Below, in pieces: positions 13,431-13,691 of a stretch of 64,000 nt of DNA. The position numbers were made by a program, and so were the translations under genes. The DNA lies in NCBI RefSeq assembly GCF_003334815.1, contig NZ_QOWO01000005.1; one strand, written 5' to 3'. The first letter of the stretch is position 1, and each line of letters opens with the position of its first letter. This DNA is from Escherichia coli. GTDB lineage: Bacteria > Pseudomonadota > Gammaproteobacteria > Enterobacterales > Enterobacteriaceae. The notes below the pieces were generated by a model. The model did no database searches, was not told the origin of the DNA, and was given only the letters and a program-made list of their open reading frames with translations.

Positions 13431-13621
13431 CTTTTGTTAACTCCTTTTTATAGATGCGGGAGGTAATTCCTCACCCCGGTGCCGATTTTCAGGCATCCTG
13501 ATTTAACTTAGCACCCGCAACTTAACTACAGGAAAACAAAGAGATAAATGTCTAATCCTGATGCAAATCGAGCCGATTTTTTAATCTTTACGGACTTTTA
13601 CCCGCCTGGTTTATTAATTTC

Positions 13622-13652
13622 TTGACCTTCCCCTTGCTGGAAGGTTTAACCT
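13622..13652 (+). promoter_or_regulatory. copA promoter with CueR operator dyad
   Basis: ttgacc (13622-13627) followed by dyad accttcc (13625-13631) / ggaaggt (13639-13645); MerR-type architecture about 40 bp upstream of copA ATG. Confidence 0.7.
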
Positions 13653-13691
13653 TTATCACAGCCAGTCAAAACTGTCTTAAAGGAGTGTTTT

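Follow-up and report, generated by a model that had tools for sequence, protein, structure and literature searches.

The copA-cueR locus and its promoter

The DNA analysed here (a stretch of 64,000 nucleotides, referred to as the window) is E. coli chromosome and contains copA, whose product is a Cu(I)-exporting P-type ATPase, together with the gene for the Cu(I)-sensing MerR-family activator CueR (Table 1). The calls of cueR, copA and glsA were confirmed at the NCBIfam equivalog level, and in the RefSeq annotation of an identical strain the genes are ordered fetA, qmcA, ybbJ, cueR, a gene remnant, ybaT and glsA, followed by the divergent copA. The CueR encoded in the window is a full-length match to the PDB CueR chains 1q05, 4wlw, 4wls, 6ldi, 7c17, 6xh7 and 6xh8, among which are structures on copA promoter DNA, crystallised or imaged, including the complex of CueR, RNA polymerase (RNAP) and PcopA. 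Within copA, the slippery heptamer C_CCA_AAG (13892-13898, + strand, codons 67-69) is followed by a -1 frame stop TAA at 13901-13903; it fits the published CopA(Z) frameshift, a programmed event that yields a 70-aa chaperone (Meydan 2017, cited in PMC12589874). As regards RNA genes and elements, a search for tRNA genes found none in the 64-kb window, and Rfam matches comprise a DnaX frameshift element, the sroB sRNA, the 4.5S/SRP RNA and three naRNA4 (REP-type) elements, two of the three located directly downstream of copA; the coordinates of the matches are 31651-31715 (-), 17784-17867 (-), 48519-48615 (-), 16308-16486 and 23547-23624.

Table 1. Coordinates of genes and regulatory features in the window and, in the last row, in the loci of other species
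Feature	Position	Strand	Remarks
cueR, Cu(I)-sensing MerR-family activator	10671-11078	-	NF007590, 308.6 bits (cut-off 244); TIGR02044, 207.5 bits
HlyD-family type I secretion adaptor gene remnant (3' end), 98 bp	11075-11172	-	RefSeq pseudogene; ATGA overlap with cueR start
ybaT, APC-family permease	11203-12495	-	Name from RefSeq
glsA	12498-13430	-	NF009020, 560.5 bits
CpxR consensus GTAAA-N5-GTAAA, exact	13587-13601	-	20 bp upstream of copA -35
PcopA -35 hexamer TTGACC	13622-13627	+	Direct sequence; invariant in 74/74 enterobacterial copA promoters
CueR operator, perfect dyad ACCTTCC-N7-GGAAGGT	13625-13645		Arms 13625-13631 and 13639-13645
PcopA spacer, 19 bp	13628-13646	+	2 bp beyond optimum
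PcopA -10 hexamer TAACCT	13647-13652	+	Starts 2 bp past core GGAAGG
copA transcription start, predicted	13658-13660	+	6-8 nt past -10; from promoter geometry alone
copA Shine-Dalgarno AAGGAG	13680-13685	+	6 nt ahead of ATG at 13692
copA, Cu(I)-exporting P-type ATPase, regulated gene	13692-16196	+	NF007952, 1745.7 bits, full length; RefSeq copA
Duplicated -35/CueR-operator DNA	L013, L021, L039, L043 (about 4063 and 6242), L052		

The copA promoter region reads tcTTGACCTTCCCCTTGCTGGAAGGTTTAACCTttatcac in the window sequence and combines the features of a CueR-controlled promoter, namely a spacer of 19 bp, a dyad placed inside this spacer and overlapping the -35 hexamer, the exact core CCTTCC-N7-GGAAGG, a cognate CueR with both Cu(I) ligands (Cys112 and Cys120) and a target gene, copA, in copper homeostasis. 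The two 7-nt arms were returned by a repeat finder as 100% complementary and 7 nt apart; the centre between them is CCTTGCT, the overlap with the -35 amounts to 3 bp (ACC) and the dyad ends 1 bp before the -10. The original prediction had recognised from sequence alone a dyad accttcc-N7-ggaaggt that overlaps a ttgacc -35 element in the manner of MerR-type promoters, and it placed both correctly; with the spacer of TTGACC-19-TAACCT now measured and the dyad agreeing with the published CueR core, the MerR-type arrangement is borne out. At a tolerance of up to 2 mismatches the dyad has a single match in the 64-kb window against a chance expectation of 0.09, and at least one match turned up in 9 of 100 shuffles; no second CueR box was found in the window at this tolerance, including the DNA upstream of cueR. 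A standard sigma-70 scan at 16-18 bp spacing returned no promoter from the copA-glsA intergenic region, a result that is to be expected of an activator-dependent promoter with a 19-bp spacer and does not count as evidence against it. A 12-nt inverted repeat (13650-13661 and 13672-13683, 83% complementary) was observed to span the -10 end and the copA Shine-Dalgarno region; its left arm lies mostly upstream of the predicted transcription start, which makes a role in the RNA doubtful.

The CpxR consensus farther upstream is the sole match in the 64-kb window, with 0.10 expected by chance. It occurs only in E. coli-clade loci, being absent from E. albertii and other genera. CpxR has been reported to regulate copA expression (PMC11005409), and a search of the literature returned no paper naming a CpxR box at copA by its sequence. 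The box probably represents a second input to PcopA.

Spacer length, operator and activation by CueR

For comparison, cueR loci were collected from 80 Enterobacteriaceae species (L003-L082, with cueR at about 10001 in each); 73 of these include the copA start, and their copA upstream regions, aligned together with that of the window, gave a set of 74 promoters. In every one of them TTGACC is followed after exactly 19 bp by TA[A/C][C/G]CT, such that positions T1, A2, C5 and T6 of the -10 are invariant and positions 3-4 are variable. The right arm GGAAGG and a TT are likewise invariant, the TTCC of the left arm is kept in 71 of the 74 promoters and the central 7 nt vary; fixed arms around a variable centre are the pattern expected of a protein that contacts two half-sites. 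Over the 31-bp core the mean majority fraction is 0.967, compared with 0.66-0.68 in the 20-bp flanks. Within the species, a 46-bp PcopA core is present in 5417 of 5426 complete E. coli genomes and identical in 5357, and a stretch of 330 bp that covers the intergenic DNA between glsA and copA and the first part of copA is found in 5423 of the 5426, at 100% identity in many. Two of the 5418 places matched by the 46-bp core in this genome collection are on plasmids, not chromosomes. Degenerate left arms were noted in Salmonella enterica subsp. arizonae (L008; ACCTTAA instead of ACCTTCC), L011 (TTAC) and L073 (TTTA), the right arm never being altered.

The choice of the -10 calls for particular care. 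Paired with the -35 at 17 bp, the hexamer TTTAAC (13645-13650) gives TTGACC-N17-TTTAAC, which agrees with the consensus at 9 of 12 positions as against 8 of 12 for the 19-bp pairing with TAACCT; copA would then have an ordinary sigma-70 promoter independent of DNA distortion, and the dyad would be a repressor site or incidental. These hexamer counts imply that the sequence alone is insufficient for assigning the -10 and that conservation and literature are needed. TTTAAC has neither A at position 2 nor T at position 6, the two most critical positions of a -10, and is therefore rejected by the consensus scan; moreover, its positions 5 (A/C) and 6 (C/G), which are the variable columns of the -10 alignment, drift among the 74 species, in all of which T1, A2 and T6 of TAACCT are fixed. 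Cryo-EM places sigma on the hexamers spaced at 19 bp, and PcopA is poorly bound by RNAP in the absence of CueR (PMC8169799). We consider an ordinary promoter with a 17-bp spacer highly improbable, and the comparative data settle the choice in favour of the 19-bp partner TAACCT as the predicted -10. The MerR-type reading of the original prediction thus holds up against a 17-bp spacer with a good -10, for the hexamer found at that distance is poor and drifts between species.

The cryo-EM structures of CueR, sigma-70 RNA polymerase and PcopA (PMC8169799) come with a description of promoter geometry with which the window sequence agrees throughout: PcopA has a 19-bp spacer, 3 bp are common to the inverted repeat and the -35 and, in the wild-type promoter, the core CCTTCC-N7-GGAAGG is 2 bp from the -10. 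In the same study, both RNAP binding and transcription on PcopA were dependent on CueR, bending by CueR restored the distance between the hexamers and a 1-bp shift of the CueR box impaired activation (PMC8169799). On this mechanism, a CueR dimer encoded 2.6 kb away would diffuse to the dyad and bind there. With 2 bp too many in the spacer, sigma-70 RNA polymerase would be unable to engage both hexamers properly until Cu(I)-CueR bends and under-twists the spacer, by which the hexamers would be realigned and copA transcribed; metal-free CueR would keep the promoter DNA in a repressing shape. Promoter anatomy, conservation, regulator identity and gene order come from the current analysis, and the allosteric mechanism comes from published work on the same DNA.

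Regarding the identity of the regulator, E. coli has several MerR paralogues, and CueR is weakly similar to the models of ZntR, MerR and SoxR. That the dyad belongs to another MerR-family protein (ZntR, SoxR), or is a palindrome arisen by chance, is nevertheless barely conceivable in view of the low chance expectation of such a dyad per window even with 2 mismatches permitted, the exact match to the CueR core that PcueO has in common, the near-invariance of the arms over 74 species and the solved structures of CueR on copA promoter DNA. No data contradicting a CueR operator were met in this analysis. Positions 13622-13652 are almost certainly the copA promoter with its CueR operator, activated by DNA distortion and set at a distance from cueR by a lineage-specific insertion of glsA-ybaT.

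The PcopA/CueR operator and the E. coli gene order are already known in full; the system is a textbook model of activation by DNA distortion, and its rediscovery adds nothing new. The operator of E. coli K-12 was reportedly described by Outten in 2000, by Petersen and Moller in 2000 and by Stoyanov in 2001. In locus, layout and CueR protein the K-12 system (structures 4WLW/4WLS, 6LDI/7C17 and 6XH7/6XH8) is the same as that of the window, with nothing of substance different, and over 330 bp around the site the window matches the K-12 derivative ER1709, among many E. coli, at 100% identity. The K-12 cueO promoter, which reads cTTGACCTTCCcgtaaggGGAAGGacTATGCT, contains the same box at the same 19-bp spacing (cTTGACCTTCC-N7-GGAAGG, with identical -35 and left arm), which answers the motif comparison with PcueO suggested by the original prediction; it differs from PcopA in the centre (CGTAAGG vs CCTTGCT), in the base at the outer end of the right arm (A vs T) and in the -10 (TATGCT vs TAACCT), and the cueO gene is unlinked to cueR.

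Origin of the distance between cueR and copA

The mer system of Tn21/Tn501 (MerR at PmerT/PmerR) resembles PcopA in having its dyad in a 19-bp spacer and in being activated by DNA distortion, but it involves another metal and operator sequence, and the regulator gene of the window is 2.6 kb from its operator. As with merR, cueR abuts its target and diverges from it in most Enterobacteriaceae. The copA-cueR divergon of Salmonella and Enterobacter has the same 31-bp promoter-operator core as E. coli, yet the cueR start codon is only ~9 bp from the copA -35 there, the genes of E. coli being 2.6 kb apart. Adjacency of the mer type is not found in the window: 2613 bp separate the start codons of cueR and copA (2546 bp from the cueR start codon to the dyad), and this gap is occupied by glsA, ybaT and the gene remnant. 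Djoko is said to have described cueR and copA in 2017 as typically contiguous and divergent. Published accounts of E. coli place a ybaS-ybaT operon between copA and cueR (PMC9628877) and contrast a predicted ybaS-ybaT-ybbI operon, divergent from copA, with the Salmonella divergon (PMC1526738, from 2006). The original prediction had stated that glsA-ybaT part cueR from copA, which NCBIfam and the RefSeq gene calls confirm, and that CueR therefore acts on a non-adjacent target. The latter is correct as to gene order and needs qualification in that the separation is a derived, lineage-specific state and the locus possibly still a shared divergent unit.

The remnant next to cueR tells of a larger insertion. 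It aligns to the end of an intact 391-aa HlyD-family ORF upstream of cueR in E. whittamii (L003), where an intact operon (433-10004) encoding a 2077-aa Ca-tandemer adhesin, an LssB-type ABC exporter and the HlyD adaptor lies directly upstream of cueR and has an ATGA overlap with the cueR start codon. Comparison of the intact operon with the E. coli remnant indicates that E. coli kept glsA-ybaT and lost most of the secretion operon. A decayed version of the type I secretion operon was also observed in L006. Among the 73 species, glsA-ybaT are located between copA and cueR only in the Escherichia loci L005-L007. The distance between cueR and copA arose when an ancestral pair of divergent genes was split by the insertion of glsA-ybaT together with a type I secretion operon that has since degraded; the separation is derived and lineage-specific, not a design feature.

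How much the separation matters for expression depends on the transcript to which cueR belongs. The genes glsA, ybaT and cueR follow one another in the same direction at short distances of 2 bp and 124 bp, and simple scans, which constitute weak evidence, showed no promoter-like or minus-strand terminator-like site between ybaT and cueR, so that co-transcription of cueR with glsA-ybaT is possible. If cueR were the last gene of a glsA-ybaT-cueR transcript from the intergenic region of copA, the divergent unit would persist at the operon level and the operator might affect the divergent promoter. The operon divergent from copA predicted in PMC1526738 would fit this arrangement, as would the increased expression of ybaST under copper stress (PMC9628877, PMC10903455). 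According to PMC10903455, citing Djoko 2017, however, CueR has no direct part in regulating ybaST, and the 124-bp gap, being a decayed gene remnant, could hold a weak promoter. We regard the common transcript as possible and lean against it.

Insertions at the cueR-copA junction across Enterobacteriaceae

E. coli is one case of a wider pattern. The two genes are immediate divergent neighbours in 43 of the 73 species (gap of 94-115 bp, cueR start ~9 bp upstream of the copA -35); the gap is 141-661 bp in 9 species, and 21 have inserts of 1.4-8.5 kb. Extra DNA is thus found at the point between cueR and the copA -35 in 30 of the 73 species (141 bp-8.5 kb), with roughly ten unrelated types of cargo. 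Several Citrobacter have a heme-uptake cluster that includes HutW, HutX and a TonB-dependent hemin receptor; other cargo consists of argH with dcu-like transporters, of a TrkH paralogue, or of a nucleoside hydrolase accompanied by a LacI-type regulator and an MFS transporter. NCBIfam was used to check nine insert ORFs, and the other cargo labels, among them dcu-like, LacI-type and MFS, come from reading the translations; no mobility genes were recognised among the insert ORFs so read and checked. The operator always remains with copA, and homology to the ancestral spacer sets in no more than a few bp from the -35. A direct duplication of 20-33 bp of -35/operator DNA flanks the insert in at least five species (Table 1), so that an orphan operator or half-operator immediately precedes cueR.

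In species with the two genes adjacent, the promoter and leader of cueR must pass through PcopA in antisense orientation. A candidate cueR promoter is found there on the strand opposite the copA leader, with a conserved TATAAT/TATGAT beside the copA Shine-Dalgarno, ~89 nt from cueR; a second candidate, TTGACC-17-TA..., lies ~45 nt from cueR in adjacent-type loci (e.g., L063 and L012). The E. coli equivalents of these candidates are decayed (TAAGAC) or deleted. In E. coli (13653-13691) and in several insert-bearing Citrobacter, copA has a leader of 39 nt, compared with 54-75 nt where cueR is adjacent.

The gap of a few bp that separates the cueR start from the copA -35, or the operator itself in some species, may tentatively be seen as a recurrent point of islet integration in Enterobacteriaceae, a suggestion that we rate as rather unlikely. 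If it applied, glsA-ybaT and the decayed type I secretion operon would represent one integration event, through which cueR would have lost an ancestral promoter that overlapped PcopA, the copA leader would have become shorter and the lineage-specific upstream DNA that now carries the CpxR box would have arrived; targeting of CueR-distorted DNA, or of an att-like site, could underlie such integration. The claim needs a proper phylogenetic survey first, and a possible hot spot of insertion at a regulator-distorted operator is flagged here as a modestly interesting by-product. The insertion pattern is the context added by this analysis. Its value is modest: it explains how the regulator came to be unlinked from its operator in the model organism E. 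coli, and it suggests that E. coli may be atypical in the expression of cueR itself.

One of the collected loci deserves separate mention. The contig of L050 is labelled Chryseobacterium sp. 18061 and bears a cueR of enterobacterial type (86% identity), the DNA upstream of it hardly differs from that in Citrobacter sp. 18056 (L056), and the record names suggest a common project; L050 is probably a mislabelled or contaminated assembly.
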